Source: Planctomycetales bacterium
Lineage (GTDB): Bacteria; 4484-113; JAFGCY01
NCBI GenBank assembly: GCA_022646745.1
Contig: CP060262.1
Coordinates: 690,001 to 722,000 of the forward strand
Length of the DNA: 32,000 bases
Direction: 5' to 3'
Of the stretch, positions 497 to 11,048 are shown one piece after another. The position numbers and the translations under genes were made by a program. Each line of letters opens with the position of its first letter. Within the stretch, counting starts at the first letter, position 1. Below the pieces are notes generated by a model. The model ran no database searches. It was not told the origin of the DNA and saw only the letters and a program-made list of their open reading frames with translations.

Positions 497-946
497 CTAG
501 AACATGTGCGTGCGCTTCTCGCCTTCCTTCTTCGCGGCCTCGCGGCGCACCATCGCCTTCTTCAGGGCGAAGATCGCGCGCTCGATGTCGACGTTCAGGT
601 CGTTCTGCGAGTAGTATGCCTGCAGGCGCTCACGCGCGCGCTTCTCGGCTTCCTCAGCGCGATGCACATCGATGTCGCCCGCCTGCTCAGCGGTTTCGGC
701 CAGCACGGTCACGCCGTCCTTGCCGATCTCCACGAAGCCGCCACCGACCGCGATGAAGCGGATGCGGTGCTCCTCCGGGTGCTCGATCATCAGCGTGCCC
801 TGCTCAAGCCCGCTGATCAGCGGGGCATGGCCCTTCCACACGCCGAAGTAGCCGTCCAGGCCGGGGATCACGCAGCTGGTGGTCTCCCCGCTCCAGACCT
901 CGCCGTCGGGGGTGACAACCTTCAGTGCGTACTTTGCCGTTGACAT
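497..946 (-). CDS. atpC: F1 ATP synthase epsilon subunit
   Basis: 149 aa, last gene of the cluster, 18 nt after atpD. N-terminal beta-sandwich-like sequence (LKVVTPDGEVWSG...VIPGLDGYFGVWKGHAPLIS) and a C-terminal charged helical hairpin. Confidence 0.9.
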   Translation of the reverse strand: MSTAKYALKVVTPDGEVWSGETTSCVIPGLDGYFGVWKGHAPLISGLEQGTLMIEHPEEHRIRFIAVGGGFVEIGKDGVTVLAETAEQAGDIDVHRAEEAEKRARERLQAYYSQNDLNVDIERAIFALKKAMVRREAAKKEGEKRTHMF

Positions 947-964
947 GCTTGGCTCCTATCCGAC

Positions 965-3246
<2,282 letters not shown>

Positions 3247-3404
3247 GTCTACTGAATCGAGAGAGTGCTCGGTGCAGTTAATCAGCATACAGCTCAGGAG
3301 TGTCCCGGACCTGCCGCTGTTCAATCCACGCACAGCTGATTTTCCGCGCGCAAGCGCCTGCCGGAAAGCGGCAGGTTGGCCTGGTGTTGCGCGATTCAGC
3401 CTGA

Positions 3405-4280
3405 TCATCCCTTCAACGCCTCCGCGCCGCCGACGATGTCCAGCAGCTCAAGCGTGATGCCCGCCTGGCGGGCCTTGTTGTATTCAAGTGTCAGGGCATC
3501 GATCATGTCGCCAGCAGCCTTGGTGGCGTTTTCCATCGCCACCATGCGGGCGCCGTTCTCGGAGGTGAAGTTCTCCATCGCGGCCTGGAACATGATCGTC
3601 TGGAAGTAGCGCGGCAGCAGTGCGGTCAGCAGCTCCTCCGGGCTCGGTTCAAGGTCGTAATTGTCGGCGAAGCCCTCCGCCTCGTCCTCACCGGCCGGCT
3701 CCAGGCTCTGGATCGGCAGCAGGCGCACGGCTGTCGGGTCGGACTTCATCACATTGATGAAGCGGGCGTAGATCATGTGCACTTCGGCGACCTCGCCCTC
3801 GAGGTAGGCATTCGTGAGCACTGCGTTCACCGGCTTCAGGTCGGCGTAGCTGGTGTTCTCATTGAAGCCCGGGAACCAGCTGCCCCCCTTGCCAAGCGCC
3901 TGCCAGCCCTTCTTGCCGACGAACACGATCTCCGTTTCGCGGCCCTGGGAGCGCTGTTCACGGATGAACTGCTCAGCCTTCTTCACGAGGTTCGCATTGA
4001 AGCTGCCGCACAGGCCCTTGTCGCCCGTGAACAGGAGCAGCATCACCTTCGGCGCTTCCGCGTTCACATGGCTCAGGAAAGGGTGGTCCACCTCGGTAGC
4101 CACGCTCGCGAGGTTGCGCATCACGCCGGCCAGGGTGTCCGTGTAGGGACGGCTGGCCTGGGTGCGGCCCTCGCTCTTGCGCAGGCGAGCGGCAGCGACC
4201 ATCTTCATCGCCTTCGTGATCTGCTGGGTGCTCTTCACCGATTTGATTCGGTTGCGGATTTCCTTGCCGCCCTTAGCCAC
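3405..4280 (-). CDS. atpG: F1 ATP synthase gamma subunit
   Basis: N-terminus (M)AKGGKEIRNRIKSVKSTQQITKAMKMVAAARLRK and C-terminus ARQAGITLELLDIVGGAEAL are canonical gamma. GTG start with AAGGAGG 6 nt upstream. Confidence 0.93.
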   Translation of the reverse strand: MAKGGKEIRNRIKSVKSTQQITKAMKMVAAARLRKSEGRTQASRPYTDTLAGVMRNLASVATEVDHPFLSHVNAEAPKVMLLLFTGDKGLCGSFNANLVKKAEQFIREQRSQGRETEIVFVGKKGWQALGKGGSWFPGFNENTSYADLKPVNAVLTNAYLEGEVAEVHMIYARFINVMKSDPTAVRLLPIQSLEPAGEDEAEGFADNYDLEPSPEELLTALLPRYFQTIMFQAAMENFTSENGARMVAMENATKAAGDMIDALTLEYNKARQAGITLELLDIVGGAEALKG

Positions 4281-4641
4281 CTGCGTCCTCCTTCGTATCG
4301 TTTCCGTTCAGCCGGGGCTTGAAGCCGATGTCACTTTCATCTGCTCCGGCCCGCCAGCCCGTGCGCTCGGGGAACTGGATCACCGTCGCGATGTAGTCCC
4401 AGCGGACCAGGATCACCGCGCGATGGCTCTCTTCCCGTCGCTGCTCCGGCGGAATGTAAGTCTCCTGCTGGTCGTAGACCGGCACCACCTTGTAGTTGGG
4501 GTGTTCGATCCACATGCCCAGTTCGTCAAGGCCCGTCACGTCCGCCGCGAACTTCTCGCTGTAGACGCCCGGCAGGTCCAGCAGCTCATAGGCGGTCCGG
4601 TCGAGCTGGATCAGCACTCGCGTGCCGACCACATCCTCCAT
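4273..4641 (-). CDS. Hypothetical small cytoplasmic protein between atpA and atpG
   Basis: Stop TAA (4273-4275) overlaps the atpG GTG start by 8 nt, and the atpG SD lies within its last codons. Alternative in-frame ATGs at 4686 and 4716 overlap the atpA 3' end. No signal peptide or TM segment, and no family recognised. Confidence 0.6.
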   Translation of the reverse strand: MEDVVGTRVLIQLDRTAYELLDLPGVYSEKFAADVTGLDELGMWIEHPNYKVVPVYDQQETYIPPEQRREESHRAVILVRWDYIATVIQFPERTGWRAGADESDIGFKPRLNGNDTKEDAGG

Positions 4642-4675
4642 CGTGACTGCCTTGTGCAAAGCTGCCTCCCGTCTG

Positions 4676-6328
4676 TTAACCGGCATGCTTCGCCGCGAAA
4701 TCGGCGAAGTAGGCATCGGCGGCGGTCTTCATGCTTTCCTCGACATCCGCATGGTTTCCGGTCTTGCGGATCGTCTCCAGCACCTGGCCGTAGTTTTCCT
4801 TCAGGTATTTCACGAAGCCTGCGCTGGAGGCCTGTACCTGGTCAACGGGCAGCTTGTCGTAGTAGCCCTTACTACCGGCCCAGATCTGCGCGACCTGCTC
4901 CTCGGTGGCAAGCGGGACGTACTGGCCCTGCTTCAGCAGCTCCACCATGCGCTCACCACGGGTGAGCAGTCGCAGGGTGGCGGCATCCAGGTCAGAACCG
5001 AACTGTGCGAAGGCCGCCATTTCGCGGTACTGCGCAAGGTCCAGCTTCAGTGAACCGGCGACCTTCTTCATGGCCTTTGTCTGAGCGCTACCACCGACTC
5101 GCGACACGGAGATACCCACGTTCACCGCGGGACGGATGCCCTGGTAGAACAGGTCACTCTCCAGGAAGATCTGTCCATCGGTGATGGAGATCACGTTCGT
5201 CGGGATGTAAGCGGACACGTCGCCGGCCTGGGTCTCGATCACCGGCAGGGCCGTGATCGATCCGCCGCGGCGCACTTCGACACCACTAATGTCGTTGCCG
5301 CAGCTGGCACATTTCTTGAAGATGGCCTGCTCCTCATAGGCATGCAGCTTGTTGAGCGGGTTGTTGTTGCCGCACTGCGGGCAGAGCTTGTAGTCGGCCA
5401 GCTTGACGGCGCGCTCCAGCAGGCGCGAGTGCAGGTAGAACACGTCTCCCGGGTAGGCCTCACGGCCCGGCGGACGGCGCAGCAGCAGGGACAGCGTACG
5501 GTACGCGGCAGCCTGCTTCGTCAGGTCATCGTATGCGATCAGCACATCCTGGGAGTTGTACATGAACTCCTCGGCCATTGCCACGCCCGCGTAGGGGGCG
5601 ATGTACTGCAGCGGCGCGGGATCGGAGGCGGAGGCGGAAACCACGATGGAGTAGGCCATCGCTCCGGTCTCTTCCAGCTTGGCGACCGTACGCGCCACGT
5701 TGGATTCCTTCTGGCCGATCATCACGTAGATGCAGAACACGGGGGTGTTCGTCTCGTGGGTGTACTTCTGGTTGATCATCGCGTCGAGGATGATCGCGCT
5801 CTTGCCGGTTGAACGGTCGCCAATGATCAGCTCGCGCTGTCCACGGCCGATCGGGATCATCGAGTCGACGGCCTTGAGGCCCGTCTGCATCGGCTCATGC
5901 ACCGGCTGGCGGTAGACCACGCCGTCTGCCTTGCGCTCCAGCGGACGGTAGCGGTCGGTGACGATCGGGCCCTTGCCGTCAATCGGCTGGCCGAGCGGGT
6001 TGACAACACGGCCAAGCATGGCCTTGCCGACGGGCACCTGCAGCACCTTGCCGGTGCGCTTGACCGGGTCGCCTTCCTTCACGCCCGAGTCGTCGCCAAG
6101 CAGCACGACGCCGACGCTCTCCTCCTCCAGGTTGAGCGCCATTCCCATGACGCCACCGGGGAACTCAAGCATCTCGGACGCGAGGCAGTTGGACAGGCCG
6201 AAGACTCGTGCGATACCGTCGCCCACCTGGACGACCGTACCCTGGTCCTCGAGCTTGAGGCTGCCCTCGTAGCTCTCGATCTGCTTCTTGAGTAATGCAG
6301 TTACCTCTTCAGGTCTGATAGCTGACAT
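4676..6328 (-). CDS. atpA: F1 ATP synthase alpha subunit with Cys4 insertion
   Basis: Walker A GDRSTGKS, plus [42 protein letters not shown] and [25 protein letters not shown]. 550 aa, longer than the usual 500-515, because of the insertion at 5267-5398. Confidence 0.97.
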
Positions 6329-6421
6329 GACTTGCTATATCTCCTGTGTTGTCAAACACGCGTTGTCAGGGGGAAGCGGATAGCCTTCCGCCTGCCCCAG
6401 TTTTGGTCCGATCGGCCCCGC

Positions 6422-6982
6422 TCAGGCCCCGGCGAGCGTACGCCGGTAGTTGAGCATCTGCTCCTTGAGGTCGTCCAGCCGGTGCGCCAGGGTCCCGTCG
6501 ATCACGAGGTGGTCGCCGAGCTGCACCTTGACCCCGCCGAGCACCGCCGGGTCCACCTTCTCGGTGACGCCGAGGTTCTCGTAGTCGCTGAAGCGCTTCA
6601 CGCCCGCCACGATGGCCTGCTTCTGCTCCGCGGAAAGCGGCACGGCGCTGACGATCGTGATCTCCTCGACACCACGGTGCATATCCGTCAGGTGGTCGAA
6701 GTAGCGCAGTGTATCCGGCAGGGCCAGGATACGGTTCTTGTCGATCATCAGCAGCACCAGCGTGAGCAGGGTGTCGTCAATCCGGCCACCGAGCTGGGAC
6801 CTGATCAGGTCCTTCTTGGAGGCACTGGGCACCTGCGGTGACCCGAGGAAGTCGCGGACCTGGCGGTCCTTGAACACATCCTCAAGCACCTGGGCCTGGG
6901 CGTCTACGGCCTCCATCGTGCCACGTTCGAGCGTCAGCTCGAACAGGGCAGTGGCGTACCGCTTGGCTACAGCTCCGAGCAT
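6422..6982 (-). CDS. atpH: F1 ATP synthase delta (OSCP) subunit
   Basis: 186 aa, N-terminus AKRYATALFEL. Sits between atpF and atpA, and its start lies 1 nt after the atpF stop. Confidence 0.85.
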   Translation of the reverse strand: MLGAVAKRYATALFELTLERGTMEAVDAQAQVLEDVFKDRQVRDFLGSPQVPSASKKDLIRSQLGGRIDDTLLTLVLLMIDKNRILALPDTLRYFDHLTDMHRGVEEITIVSAVPLSAEQKQAIVAGVKRFSDYENLGVTEKVDPAVLGGVKVQLGDHLVIDGTLAHRLDDLKEQMLNYRRTLAGA

Positions 6983-6983
6983 G

Positions 6984-7472
6984 CTAGTTGAGCTCCCTCA
7001 TATCGGAGATGAAGCTGGAGACCAGCCTGTCATGGCGGTCCTTGTCCAGGTCTTCCTTCATCACCCGCTGGGCGATACGGAAGGAGAGGTCGATCGCAGC
7101 GTTGTTGAGCTCGGCCAGGGCCTTCTCCTTCTCACGCTGGATGTCCTCCTGGGTACGGGCCAGCAGCTTCTCGCGCGCTTCTTCGGCATGTGCCTTGATT
7201 TCCGCGGCGGCCGCCTGGCCCTTATCCAGTGCTTCCTGCATCTTCGCCTGTGCTTCGGCGTTGATATCGGCCATGCGCTTCTCGTACTCAGCCTGCTGCT
7301 TTGCAAGCTCGGTACGGGCACGGTCGATCTCGTCGAAGGCGTCCTCGATACTCTTGCGGCGTGAGTCGATGACCTGGGGCACTGCCGTCCACAAGGGCTT
7401 CTTGAGCACAGCCATCAGGATCAGGAATCCAACGAGGCTGGCTACGATTACTGGCAGATTTGCTAGGTCCAC
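6984..7472 (-). CDS. atpF: Fo ATP synthase b subunit
   Basis: One N-terminal TM helix (LPVIVASLVGFLILMAVL) followed by a long charged coiled-coil region. Position is after atpE. Confidence 0.85.
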   Translation of the reverse strand: MDLANLPVIVASLVGFLILMAVLKKPLWTAVPQVIDSRRKSIEDAFDEIDRARTELAKQQAEYEKRMADINAEAQAKMQEALDKGQAAAAEIKAHAEEAREKLLARTQEDIQREKEKALAELNNAAIDLSFRIAQRVMKEDLDKDRHDRLVSSFISDMRELN

Positions 7473-7485
7473 AACTTACTCCTTG

Positions 7486-7719
7486 TTAAGAGATCTTGCC
7501 CTGAAGGACGAAAGCGATAACGAGCGAGTAGATCGTAAGTGCCTCGATGAACGCGGCACCGATCAGCATCGCCGTCTGGAGCTTGCCGATGGCTTCGGGC
7601 TGACGGCCCATAGCTTCCATTGCGCCCTTCACGGCCAGACCGATACCAATACCGGATCCAAAGGCCGCGAGGCCGAGGCCGATGGGGATACCCAATCCTA
7701 AGGCTGCACCTGCATCCAT
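7486..7719 (-). CDS. atpE: Fo ATP synthase c subunit
   Basis: 77-aa two-helix hairpin with a GRQPE loop and the carboxylate in [13 protein letters not shown]. Ala follows the Glu, so it lacks the ES/ET Na+ motif. Confidence 0.92.
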
Positions 7720-7752
7720 GACGAAAACTCCTAAAACGTTGATGAATTGATG

Positions 7753-8841
7753 TTACGCGTGGCTGTGCGCATGGTCATGCGCATCATGGTGTTCATGATG
7801 CTCGTGGTGGTCATGCGGCTCCCACATTGTGATGTAAACGGCTGAAAGCAGGCTGAAGATCAGCGCCTGGATGGCACCGAGCAGCAGGCCCAGGAACAGG
7901 AACGGCGTATGCAGCGGGACCCAGGGAATGAGGCCGGCGAAAACGCCGAGCAGCACATCCTTGCCGAGCAGGTTGCCGTACAGTCGCAGTGACAGAGAGA
8001 TGGGCTGGATGAACAGCTCCATGATGTGGATGATCGTGAACAGGGTCGCCATGAAGGCGATGATGCCGTAGCTGGCGCCACCCATGCCCAGCTCCTTAGC
8101 AGTCGGCAGTGTGCCGGGGAAGTGCTTGAGCCAGCCAAGCGGGCTCTGCATGATGGCGGAGCCGTGCACGTAGAGGAAGACCACCAGGGCCATTGCCAGG
8201 TTGAAGGACAGGTTGGCGGTCGGGGCCTTGCCAAGGAAGATCAGGCCCATCGTGTTGCAGACGAGGATGTAGATGAACAGTGTGCCGACCAGCGGCAGGT
8301 GGCGGCGTACCTTGTCGCGGCCGACGATCGCGCCGAAGAAGTCCTCGAAGAACTCGAACACGATCTCAGCGAACAGGCCGCGGCTCTTGAGCTGCTCACC
8401 CTTCTCGGGGCGGGCCTTGAGCTGGCGGGAAGCACCGAGGAAGAAGGCGCAGAGGCCGATCACGACCACGAAGCCGAAGATGATGGTCTCGAGCGCGGTG
8501 AAGGCGTCGCCATTCGGGTCATTCAGGCCAAGTCCCTTGGCCCAGTTGTCAACACCGACGATGCCGTCATGCAGCGGATCGCCCGCCGGACGGGAGTAGG
8601 CTTCGTGGTGGATCAGGCCCAGCAGGTTGGGAAGCTCGGGAATCTTGGAGCCATGGTGCTCCGCATGTCCATCGCCATGGGAATCACCCTGCGCATCGCC
8701 ATGCGCGCCGTCGTGGCCTTCAGTTGCCATGTGGCCACCGTCGGCGGCCTGCGCGGAATGGACACCGTTGTCCGGCGCTGCATGGTTGTCGTGCGTATCC
8801 TCGGAGACGCTGTCTCCGTGAGACTGCCACATGGCAAGCAT
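7753..8841 (-). CDS. atpB: Fo ATP synthase a subunit with His-rich N- and C-terminal extensions
   Basis: Conserved Arg block ISLSLRLYGNLLGKDVLL and five or more TM helices. I prefer the ATG at 8841 (GGAAGG 8 nt upstream, 1 nt after the atpI stop) over the ORF-track start at 8862. Confidence 0.9.
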   Translation of the reverse strand: MLAMWQSHGDSVSEDTHDNHAAPDNGVHSAQAADGGHMATEGHDGAHGDAQGDSHGDGHAEHHGSKIPELPNLLGLIHHEAYSRPAGDPLHDGIVGVDNWAKGLGLNDPNGDAFTALETIIFGFVVVIGLCAFFLGASRQLKARPEKGEQLKSRGLFAEIVFEFFEDFFGAIVGRDKVRRHLPLVGTLFIYILVCNTMGLIFLGKAPTANLSFNLAMALVVFLYVHGSAIMQSPLGWLKHFPGTLPTAKELGMGGASYGIIAFMATLFTIIHIMELFIQPISLSLRLYGNLLGKDVLLGVFAGLIPWVPLHTPFLFLGLLLGAIQALIFSLLSAVYITMWEPHDHHEHHEHHDAHDHAHSHA

Positions 8842-8842
8842 G

Positions 8843-9226
8843 TTATCTACCTTCCTCAACAACTGGGTCAGTCGGCCTGTCGAGCAAGCCCCTCACGATA
8901 AGCACGACAGGGAAAGCTACGAGCCCGGCAACCAGTCCCCTCAGATCCGTGAAATCGGCTGACAACAGCCACAGCAGGATGAGGTAGGACGCCGGAATTT
9001 TAGCACAGACCAAAATGAACACCAATAGTTTCCCGGGGCTTTTCTGTGCAATCAGGGACGAAATGAACAGGGCCAGCAGGGCGAGGTTGGACGCCGCCCA
9101 GAGGCAGGCCAGCAGGAATGACGCTCCTGCTCCCTCATCCCAGTAGATGCCTATACCAATCCCGCCGACCAGCCCGAGCAGGGCCAGGTCTCGCACGCAG
9201 CGGATTGTCATCGCAGTGCTCAGCAT
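8843..9226 (-). CDS. atpI: AtpI-like small membrane protein
   Basis: 127 aa with about 4 TM helices, directly upstream of atpB as in classical atp operons. Assignment rests mainly on position and topology. Confidence 0.55.
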   Translation of the reverse strand: MLSTAMTIRCVRDLALLGLVGGIGIGIYWDEGAGASFLLACLWAASNLALLALFISSLIAQKSPGKLLVFILVCAKIPASYLILLWLLSADFTDLRGLVAGLVAFPVVLIVRGLLDRPTDPVVEEGR

Positions 9227-9238
9227 CTCTGGTCCGGT

Positions 9239-9601
9239 TCATCGGTTCAGGCTTGCCATCAGGCGTATCACCATCGCAAAGGATGCAACAGTGAACATCA
9301 CCACCAGCAGCGGCAGCCAGAAGGCCGTACCCAAGCGCTGGTCAAGCCAGCTACCGGCGAGCCATCCGGCGACCGTGCCACTGACGAGGTATGCCGGGAT
9401 CACGAAGGCGTATGAAACGCCCCGCATCCGCTTGCTGCGGTCCTCCTCTGACTGCTGCTCGCGGCGTATTTCCTGGTCACTGGCTTTATGGCGCCTGTAC
9501 TTGAAGCGGAAGTCCACTCCAAGATTATAAGGAGTGCGAGACCCTCCGTGGCTGGTTCGCACCAGCCCCAATATACCATGAAACAGACTTAATTCGTGCA
9601 A
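9239..9601 (-). CDS. AtpZ-like two-TM protein (start uncertain)
   Basis: C-terminal two-helix membrane hairpin (SYAFVIPAYLVSGTVAGWLAGSWL...FWLPLLVVMFTVASFAMVI) preceded by a charged segment, located upstream of atpI as in Bacillus atpZ. The ORF-track start is TTG, and an internal ATG at 9427 would give 62 aa. Confidence 0.45.
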   Translation of the reverse strand: MHELSLFHGILGLVRTSHGGSRTPYNLGVDFRFKYRRHKASDQEIRREQQSEEDRSKRMRGVSYAFVIPAYLVSGTVAGWLAGSWLDQRLGTAFWLPLLVVMFTVASFAMVIRLMASLNR

Positions 9602-9713: not shown

Positions 9714-11048
9714 CTACCAGTCAGCGCGGTAGGGCGGATCCTCATCCTCTTCAGAGGCCGGCGGGGGCTTTATGCCGCCGAATATCTCATCCAGGTTGCT
9801 GGCCGGGGTCTGCTTCGGGGTACTGTCCGCTCCGGCCTGCATCACGTCAGGCACAGCATCGTCTGCGGGTTCGCTGATTTCGAAGTCGTAGCGAGGCTCG
9901 GGCGCCGGGGCAGGTGGGGGATCCGCCATGCTGCGCGAGGGCTGCAGCCGGCTGCCATACAGCAGCTCGCTGTCGGCAAACGGATCGGGAGCTGGGGCTG
10001 GGGATGCCTCTTCTTCCTCGGGCGCTTCATCGGCCATGGCCCAGTTGTCTGCATGCGGCTCCGATGGCGCTTCCCAGGGATCGTCCTCAGGCGGGGGCGG
10101 CGGACGCAGTCCCTCCACTTCCTCCAGCGGAGGCGGGTCGGGCATCGCAGGGGCCTCAGGCACTGGCTCAGCATTCACCGATGCAGGCATATCAGGCACA
10201 TGCCAGTCGGCGACTTCCTCATATTCAACCTGCTGGTCGATCAGCTCCACTTCATCGGAGATGTCGAGGTCCTCATCCATGTCGCGGGCCGGAGGGACCG
10301 GCGTGCTGACATCCACCGGCGGGGCTGCCGGCGGGACGTGTGGTGCGGTATGCTGCTGCGCTTCACTGAGGATGCGGCTGAAGTCGTCGTGGTCGCTGTC
10401 GCGCTCGTCGAGGTTGCCGCGGCTGCTGGTGATCCTGGGACTGGGCGGCTCCGGCGTCCAGCTGGGGGGACGCTGCATGGGAGCTGGTGCTGCCAGCTCA
10501 TCCGGGTCGTCGTCGTCATCCACCGGCAGGGTCTCATTCATCAGTTCCAGCATCTCATCCATCGGCTCCGGCGACCGCGCCGGTTCGGGCATTGCCGGGG
10601 CAGCCTGCACTGAGGGCTGGGGCTCGCTGGCCATCTCCGGGTTGCGCTTCTCGAGCCGGTGCAGGAAGCCGCTGAGCAGTCCATGGAAGGCGTACTCGAA
10701 CTCCTCGCGCTCGGCGCGGATGCGGGCCATCTCATTGCGCATCGCCTGGCAGTCAGCCTCGGCGCGGGCCTTGATCAGACCGGCTTCCTCGCGCGCATTG
10801 GCAATCACGTCCTCGCCGGTCTTCTGCGCGGTCAGCATGCTGGTCTGGATCAGGTCCTCGCGGCCCTTCAGGTCAGCCAGCCGCTCTTCCAGCTCGGAGA
10901 TGCGGCGCCTGAGCTGGGCCACGTCCTGGATATTGTCCTCCAGCGCCTGTACGACCATCGCCCGGAACTGTTCAACGGCATTACGGTCATAGCCGCGAAA
11001 CCCTGAGGGGAATTCGAACTTCTCGGCATCCAGTGGGGTGAGACCCAT
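9714..11048 (-). CDS. divIVA: DivIVA-domain protein with long acidic/Pro-rich tail
   Basis: N-terminus MGLTPLDAEKFEFPSGFRGYDRNAVEQFRAMV followed by a coiled coil, which is the canonical DivIVA domain. Residues about 136-444 are low-complexity and rich in P, E, D and A. GAGGTG SD. Confidence 0.85.
   Translation of the reverse strand: MGLTPLDAEKFEFPSGFRGYDRNAVEQFRAMVVQALEDNIQDVAQLRRRISELEERLADLKGREDLIQTSMLTAQKTGEDVIANAREEAGLIKARAEADCQAMRNEMARIRAEREEFEYAFHGLLSGFLHRLEKRNPEMASEPQPSVQAAPAMPEPARSPEPMDEMLELMNETLPVDDDDDPDELAAPAPMQRPPSWTPEPPSPRITSSRGNLDERDSDHDDFSRILSEAQQHTAPHVPPAAPPVDVSTPVPPARDMDEDLDISDEVELIDQQVEYEEVADWHVPDMPASVNAEPVPEAPAMPDPPPLEEVEGLRPPPPPEDDPWEAPSEPHADNWAMADEAPEEEEASPAPAPDPFADSELLYGSRLQPSRSMADPPPAPAPEPRYDFEISEPADDAVPDVMQAGADSTPKQTPASNLDEIFGGIKPPPASEEDEDPPYRADW

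Follow-up and report, generated by a model that had tools for sequence, protein, structure and literature searches.

The alpha subunit of F0F1 ATP synthase encoded in the window analyzed here (a whole stretch of 32,000 nucleotides from contig CP060262.1 of a Planctomycetales bacterium) carries a 39-residue insertion with two CxxCG knuckles, placed in a loop that is nine residues long in typical relatives. On balance, we favor the interpretation that this insertion is a lineage-specific structural Zn(Cys)4 ribbon mini-domain with a static role and probably no function as a redox or metal switch. This interpretation draws on the distribution of the insert among AtpA sequences, on its fixed length and predicted fold, and on a small group of carriers that have exchanged the cysteines for other residues while keeping the rest of the module.

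The host gene encodes a 550-residue protein that scores 765.1 bits against TIGR00962, the F0F1 alpha subunit profile, for which the equivalog cut-off is 484.45. Against the profile for the alpha subunit of the alternate N-ATPase (alt_F1F0), it scores 573 bits, under the cut-off of 750.5. The protein contains the Pfam domains PF02874 (ATP-synt_ab_N), PF00006 (ATP-synt_ab), and PF00306 (ATP-synt_ab_C), aligns with alpha subunits in the PDB with E-values of approximately 1e-200, and has the Walker A sequence GDRSTGKS at residues 170-177. Together with the complete atp operon (atpBEFHAGDC) that surrounds the gene, the three domains and the Walker A motif identify the product as a genuine F1 alpha subunit. 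In HMMER alignments, the solved alpha subunits cover residues 3-314 and 353-544 of the protein, and residues 315-352 are left unmatched. The unmatched segment sits between a conserved helix and the strand GGSITALP, with K-L/C at one junction and R-R-G-G-S at the other. Counted from the HSRLLER motif to the GGS motif, the loop has 48 residues in the window AtpA versus 9 in typical relatives, which gives 39 extra residues.

A preliminary description of the window had placed a Cys4 insertion of about 40 residues at positions 5267-5398, in frame and between canonical flanks, with the CPQCG and CASCG motifs 20 residues apart. Our analysis agrees with it on each of these points. The coordinates are right, with the gene on the minus strand: translation of 5267-5398 on the plus strand gives nonsense, and translation on the minus strand gives 44 residues of AtpA. 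Both motifs are present in that translation, with 20 residues separating Cys319 from Cys340. The reading frame is unbroken through the insert, and the solved alpha subunits align with the protein on both sides of it. The same description gave the loop of the Bacillus PS3 enzyme as about 9 residues, which is consistent with the loop of Firmicutes-type relatives and with the alignments to PS3-type PDB entries.

The insert is present in 43 distinct sequences from many independent metagenome and metagenome-assembled genome (MAG) assemblies, and in all of them the loop is exactly 48 residues long, with no insertions or deletions. Contigs from different ENA samples, 8 in all, encode a protein identical to the window AtpA. 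In a whole-protein search, approximately 40 clusters with 73-100% identity to the window AtpA and lengths of 544-565 residues form a sharply bounded group, all with the 48-residue loop. The next group (P0160-P0171, 65-68% identity) and all more distant AtpA proteins in that search have the 9-residue loop. A separate protein search, for which the query was the insert together with its conserved flanks, was dominated by ordinary AtpA fragments, and P0001 alone among its matches had the insert. An 822-residue protein (P0127) that had the look of a fusion was rejected: it is an alphaproteobacterial-type AtpA in which about 320 residues are duplicated internally. That duplication is probably an assembly or gene-call artefact, and the protein ranked high only because two copies contribute to its score.

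Carriers were also found at the DNA level. A degenerate DNA pattern over the insert detected nine GTDB species representatives, eight of them with complete loops. The ninth, L010, is a genuine carrier locus in which atpA runs off the end of the contig. These GTDB carriers are all MAGs titled 'bacterium ... UBP7', 'Planctomycetales bacterium', or 'bacterium'; one contig, JAGRNR010000075 (UBP7 HKST-UBA01), encodes an AtpA that is 99.8% identical to that of the window. The same pattern detected 12 more atpA loci in Joint Genome Institute (JGI) metagenomes. L016 (Bacillota), L026, and L031 were left out of the set because the complete HSRLLER...GGS motif pair was not seen in them. A neighbor-joining tree calculated without the insert columns groups all carriers in a single clade and gives as its sister the group P0160-P0171, which lacks the insert and shares with the carriers a 5-residue insertion at alpha positions 188-192. 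Since the carriers form one clade with an insert-less sister, a single ancient acquisition of the insert by the common ancestor of the carrier clade is the simplest history.

All four cysteines are invariant in 37 of the 43 distinct carriers, as would be expected for the ligands of a Cys4 zinc ribbon. Column statistics were tabulated for 35 of these four-Cys variants, the other two having come from JGI loci, and N323 (residue 17 of the loop) is also invariant in the tabulated 35. The remaining six variants (P0139, P0145, P0149, P0150, P0158/L008/L014, and P0159) have lost three or four of the cysteines in what amounts to a concerted replacement of ligands: C316 is changed to D or kept, C319 is changed to T or N, C340 to S, and C343 to T or S. 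The result is a loop of the form DPKTG...SPHTG with its length unchanged. Residues K314, P324, E332, Q334, and R354 (loop K8, P18, E26, Q28, and R48) are invariant in the tabulated Cys and Cys-less forms alike. In the neighbor-joining tree, the Cys-less sequences nest inside the carrier clade beside four-Cys groups. An alignment of AtpA orthologs, which the preliminary description had named as the check on its proposal, supports the proposal in that the insert is confined to one clade with cysteines invariant in most members, and departs from it in the six members that have replaced them.

Comparisons of closely related pairs give a ratio of nonsynonymous to synonymous polymorphism (pN/pS) of approximately 0.3 (0.27-0.36) within the insert. 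For the rest of atpA the ratio is 0.10-0.23, and it is approximately 0.1 in three of the four pairs. Thus, the insert is under purifying selection that is more relaxed than that acting on the core of the protein.

An AlphaFold2 model of the alpha subunit, calculated from a 72-sequence alignment, assigns the insert predicted local distance difference test (pLDDT) values of 76-91, which exceed those of several core segments of the monomer model. The model has the two knuckles of a Cys4 zinc ribbon: strands 312-315 and 322-325 flank knuckle 1, and a helix at 335-338 precedes knuckle 2. When the 48-residue segment is modeled by itself with 36 homologs, the same elements are predicted with a mean pLDDT of 88.4. 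A Foldseek search of the PDB with the full alpha model returns F1 alpha subunits only. With the insert as the query, Cys4 knuckle modules for zinc or iron make up nearly all of the neighbors, including the MCM N-terminal zinc module, the PolC zinc module, the rubrerythrin C-terminal domain, rubredoxins, RNA polymerase subunit P/RPB12, and NZF. In a Pfam scan of 36 inserts, the only families matched are zinc ribbons, such as DZR in 26 and Zn_ribbon_3 in 25. For the window insert, the best scores are 20.4 bits for DUF6510 (cut-off 26.4) and 17.7 bits for Zn_ribbon_3 (cut-off 27). RUBY_RBDX matches 17 of the 36 below threshold, and there are also sub-threshold matches of the LapB type. No rubredoxin-family match was present among the matches listed, and the Foldseek E-values for rubredoxin were at least 2.6, so membership in the rubredoxin family is not indicated. 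According to these models, the insert has the form of a zinc ribbon and lies outside any curated family. To the preliminary description it looked like a genuine metal-binding module; the zinc-ribbon or rubredoxin type of its sequence and its predicted fold uphold the module, and metal binding itself is a prediction.

Searches for relatives of the insert outside AtpA gave little. An insert profile searched against 1.84 billion representative proteins found no credible or free-standing homolog. Its sole marginal match (E = 3e-4), to a repetitive protein of 1665 residues, we regard as spurious. The carrier AtpA proteins had evidently been collapsed under insert-less representatives in that collection, and the search is therefore uninformative about other AtpA carriers. 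A word-index search with an alignment of the insert only gave 4 candidates and no match, and is likewise uninformative.

With respect to its position on the enzyme, the loop connects the core strand at the center of the nucleotide-binding domain of alpha with the helix that follows the Walker B region. In the topology of the additional strand catalytic E (ASCE)/RecA fold, the strand that follows the insert is the central one, between the P-loop strand and the Walker B strand, and its C-terminal end points to the nucleotide site and the central cavity. The insert is at the opposite, N-terminal end of this strand, which should place it on the outside of the alpha3beta3 ring, remote from both gamma and the nucleotide. 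The E. coli alpha subunit also has a longer loop at this site. In other bacteria (P0002-P0120), the same loop holds unrelated, Cys-free inserts of 8 to 49 additional residues, for a loop of 17-58 residues in total. These include a class with 27-35 loop residues (AAKVINDD..MNDLP..VKG) and a class with 53-58 loop residues (AAKMAEEWVVVK...). The occurrence of unrelated inserts elsewhere indicates that the loop is exposed and permissive, and that it is a hot spot for insertion. Inserts from other lineages (e.g., P0060, source name 'Deltaproteobacteria bacterium') enter at the same point between LLER and GGS and presumably occupy the same exposed position. They differ from the insert described here in that their sequences are unrelated and free of Cys and their length varies within a class, whereas this insert has a fixed length and the signature of a metal site.

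Given these observations, we propose that an independently folding Cys4 zinc-ribbon mini-domain of the rubredoxin-knuckle type entered the alpha subunit of the clade's ancestor once. A single structural metal ion, probably Zn2+, would most likely be bound by its four cysteines, and this ion would staple together a 39-residue domain whose small size presumably leaves no room for a true hydrophobic core. With three copies in each F1, the domains would then project outward as rigid knobs. Because a nested subgroup has swapped the ligands for the hydrogen-bonding residues D/T/S/T and kept the rest, selection would appear to act on the folded shape and on a conserved polar surface (K314, P324, E332, Q334, and R354) and not on the thiols. 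The most likely role would be a static one, as a contact or bracing point for a neighboring subunit, the peripheral stalk, or another partner; stabilization of the alpha fold is an alternative role that would be equally static.

Several points weigh against this proposal. The docking or bracing role is one that we infer, and no partner of the ribbon was identified. Zinc binding by the ribbon is a prediction, and the peripheral placement is derived from ASCE/RecA-fold topology and the tolerance of the loop to insertion. In the Foldseek search of the PDB with the insert, no match was significant (E of at least 1, which is expected for 48 residues), and every Pfam match of the 36 inserts was under the gathering threshold. 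The insert evolves approximately three times faster than the core, which fits a weakly constrained decoration. Outside the insert, A311, which adjoins it, is the one residue of alpha that sets the carrier clade apart; thus, alpha gives no sign of a co-evolved docking patch. Finally, the internal branches of the neighbor-joining tree are short, and neither the direction of change from Cys4 to Cys-less nor the number of losses is firmly resolved by it.

Positions of the insert, its host gene, and the other genes of the ATP synthase operon in the window
Feature	Position	Strand	Basis or remark
F-type ATP synthase operon	497-9601	-	ORFs (open reading frames); genes and Pfam matches on identical contigs
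atpA, alpha subunit of F0F1 ATP synthase (550 aa), which contains the insert	4676-6328	-	single continuous ORF; Pfam, TIGR00962, and PDB matches
Span given in the preliminary description, residues 311-354	5267-5398	-	translation
Insert proper, residues 315-352 (LCPQCG...GVEV)	5273-5386	-	without counterpart in solved alpha subunits
Knuckle 1, C316-P-Q-C319-G	5369-5383	-	turn of predicted beta-hairpin (strands 312-315 and 322-325)
Inter-knuckle segment, residues 323-334, from N323	5327-5362	-	candidate interaction or packing surface
Knuckle 2, C340-A-S-C343-G	5297-5311	-	follows short predicted helix (335-338)
atpZ-like gene	9239-9601	-	membrane protein; ATPase_gene1 25.6 bits, sub-threshold (cut-off 26.6)
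127-aa membrane ORF	8843-9226	-	without family
atpB, a subunit, 369 aa	7753-8862	-	
atpE	7486-7719	-	
atpF	6984-7472	-	
atpH	6422-6982	-	
Small conserved ORF between atpA and atpG, 128-147 aa depending on the start	4273-4716	-	
atpG	3405-4280	-	
316-aa ORF between atpG and atpD, overlapping the atpG stop	2458-3408	-	predicted exported
atpD	965-2404	-	
atpC	497-946	-	

Two extra genes are interspersed among the subunit genes from atpA to atpD, one between atpA and atpG and one between atpG and atpD. For both, presence was counted only in loci whose fetched DNA covers the relevant intergenic region, and both are present in every such carrier locus, including those with the Cys-less form. The small protein (128-147 residues) has no match in Pfam, NCBIfam, or the PDB and could be an undescribed F1-associated or assembly protein. 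The sister clade, which lacks the insert, also has a gene for it at this position, with 40-45% identity; the small protein thus predates the insert and is independent of it. The 316-residue protein co-occurs with the insert in the loci compared, and its gene is missing from the three loci (L017-L019) examined in two genomes of the sister clade. Its orthologs begin with classical Sec signal peptides ending in AxA (e.g., MKRFTLLVLTAAAVLMMAAPCFA preceding EGQ), and the protein has only a weak match to PepSY_2. Judged by these signals, it should be periplasmic and so would be unable to touch alpha, which is cytoplasmic. An exported protein encoded within an atp operon is unusual.

Three other features of the region were observed. 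The two small membrane ORFs upstream of atpB (8843-9226 and 9239-9601) are conserved across the clade. The a subunit encoded by atpB has His-rich tails at both ends, ...HGDAQGDSHGDGHAEHHG... at the N-terminus and PHDHHEHHEHHDAHDHAHSHA at the C-terminus; similar tails are found in the clade relatives L009, L011, and L013, and the sister clade has only a short PHEEAH. These tails may bind metal or buffer protons. Directly upstream of the operon, at 9714-11048 on the minus strand, is a gene for a DivIVA-domain protein of 444 residues whose C-terminal half is long, acidic, proline-rich, and of low complexity. The position of this gene is syntenic in L009, L013, and L015.

More active roles for the ribbon can be envisaged than the static one that we propose. 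It might be a handle on the outside of F1 to which a regulator or a stator element particular to the lineage attaches, such as the conserved 128-residue protein encoded after atpA or the b2-delta stalk, or it might be a zinc-thiolate switch in the four-Cys lineages through which oxidative stress or zinc status would influence the activity of ATP synthase; we regard this family of roles as unlikely. As a switch, a Zn(Cys)4 or dithiol/disulfide center would sense oxidants or zinc, shift the conformation of alpha, and thereby control the hydrolysis or synthesis of ATP. Such a mechanism would be analogous to the disulfide of chloroplast gamma or to the zinc-thiolate switches of the Hsp33/RsrA type. 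Invariance of the four cysteines in 37 variants would fit such a center, the CxxC pairs are chemically suited to it, and the strand on which the insert sits runs into the part of alpha around the nucleotide site. However, six nested carriers have lost three or four of the cysteines and kept the length and the other invariant residues of the module, so the function that is conserved needs neither thiols nor metal. In addition, the nucleotide sites of alpha are non-catalytic, the loop would be far from the nucleotide at the end of its strand, as judged from fold topology, and the operon has no thioredoxin-like or sensor gene. Nor does the insert resemble the thiol-regulatory element formed by the Cys pair of chloroplast gamma, since it is in alpha and its cysteines are dispensable in the six carriers. 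Thus, the redox or metal regulatory handle that the preliminary description had suggested is not supported by the Cys-less carriers, which retain the module with D/T/S/T at the ligand positions, and we consider a switch of this kind doubtful. The same description had raised docking of the extra operon-encoded proteins. A dedicated dock for either of them, the 128-residue cytoplasmic protein or the 316-residue protein, would agree with the presence of both genes in every covered insert locus, with the absence of the 316-residue gene from the two sister-clade genomes, and with the invariant polar residues E332 and Q334. It is nevertheless unsupported and improbable: the smaller protein occurs in a sister clade that has no insert, and the larger one is predicted to be on the other side of the membrane from alpha.

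Two further explanations would deprive the insert of any function. One is that it is an effectively neutral decoration, a stable small domain in a permissive loop that persists since its clean removal is unlikely. This would be in keeping with the many unrelated insertions that the loop takes elsewhere, with the faster evolution of the insert relative to the core, with the lack of a co-evolving patch elsewhere in alpha, and with the failure of the profile and word-index searches to find a homologous module elsewhere. We give it little weight, as a neutral domain would not be expected to show zero length variation across 43 variants, invariant residues other than Cys, a pN/pS of approximately 0.3, and, in the Cys-less group, ligands that have been replaced in concert and have not decayed. 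The other is that the insert is an artefact, whether an assembly or frameshift error, a mini-intein, or the remnant of a mobile element, and to this we attach practically no credence. The identical protein on 8 contigs and the diverged versions in 9 GTDB genomes and on 12 JGI contigs come from independent assemblies, which refutes an artefact of assembly, and the possibility of such an artefact, raised in the preliminary description, is thereby answered. The frame is continuous and under purifying selection. That description had also judged the insert too short for an intein, and we concur: 39 residues compare with at least approximately 130 in inteins, intein splice-junction residues and blocks are lacking, and no Hint-domain or intein Pfam match was present among the matches listed. 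A static zinc-ribbon mini-domain thus remains our preferred explanation.

Apart from the insert, the window alpha subunit resembles the canonical F1 alphas of Bacillus PS3 (4xd7) and Caldalkalibacillus (2qe7/5hkk) closely, with approximately 60% identity over the full length. It shares with them the three domains, the P-loop, and the arginine finger, and the genes of the operon are in the same order. The canonical proteins have a 9-residue Cys-free loop where this one has a 48-residue Cys4 loop. Rubredoxin and the rubrerythrin C-terminal domain share with the insert the CPxCG/CxxCG motifs and are neighbors of its predicted fold, with TM-scores of approximately 0.45-0.56. However, the spacer of rubredoxin is approximately 29 residues as compared to 20 in the insert, and neither sequence nor fold gives a significant score. 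The insert also differs from rubredoxin in having no electron-transfer context, as the operon consists of atp genes only, and in having Cys-less orthologs.

The exchange of ligands for polar residues has closer parallels. The LID of adenylate kinase holds a Cys4-Zn site in Bacillus and a hydrogen-bond network in E. coli. Like the insert, this LID and the ribosomal proteins L31, L33, L36, and S14 are small domains with two CxxC knuckles, in which all ligands have been replaced by polar residues at constant length in some lineages. The occurrence of C+ and C- versions of the same ribbon is established for bacterial ribosomal proteins (PMC5912738), a pattern for which that paper cites Makarova et al. 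2001. The insert has no detectable sequence homology to these small domains and, unlike them, is internal to a subunit of a rotary ATPase. Its Cys and Cys-less forms are also orthologs in different species and not zinc-regulated paralogs. With regard to its location, the F1 of trypanosomes carries an extra element, p18, on the external surface of alpha, in three copies per F1 and with conventional catalysis (PMC13545225). While p18 is a separate pentatricopeptide repeat (PPR) protein of mitochondria and the insert is a covalent segment of 39 residues in a bacterial alpha, p18 provides a precedent for mass added to the outer face of alpha with catalysis unchanged.

Full-text literature searches found no zinc ribbon or Cys4 insertion in F1 alpha, and a zinc-ribbon mini-domain in this subunit is apparently undescribed. 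To our knowledge, few proteins are as strongly conserved as F1 alpha, and only a small number of elaborations of the F1 head have been described. Known examples are the C-terminal extension of mycobacterial alpha and trypanosome p18. Zinc-ribbon insertions in surface loops of conserved enzymes are common. Since they are common, and since this loop is a hot spot, the insert is of moderate interest as long as neither a partner nor a function as a switch has been shown, and by itself it leaves the understanding of rotary catalysis unchanged. If the ribbon did prove to be a handle or switch, no bacterial F1 alpha would before it have been known to contain a metal-dependent domain for docking or regulation, and it is in any case a possible contact point for accessory factors. 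Its presence indicates that a folded domain can be accommodated in this loop, a property of use to anyone who wishes to attach engineered tags or handles to F1, and the coexistence of Cys4 and Cys-less forms offers a natural experiment on the stabilization of small domains. For the organisms that carry it, a folded and probably metal-binding domain in alpha is a clean molecular signature of a whole candidate lineage.

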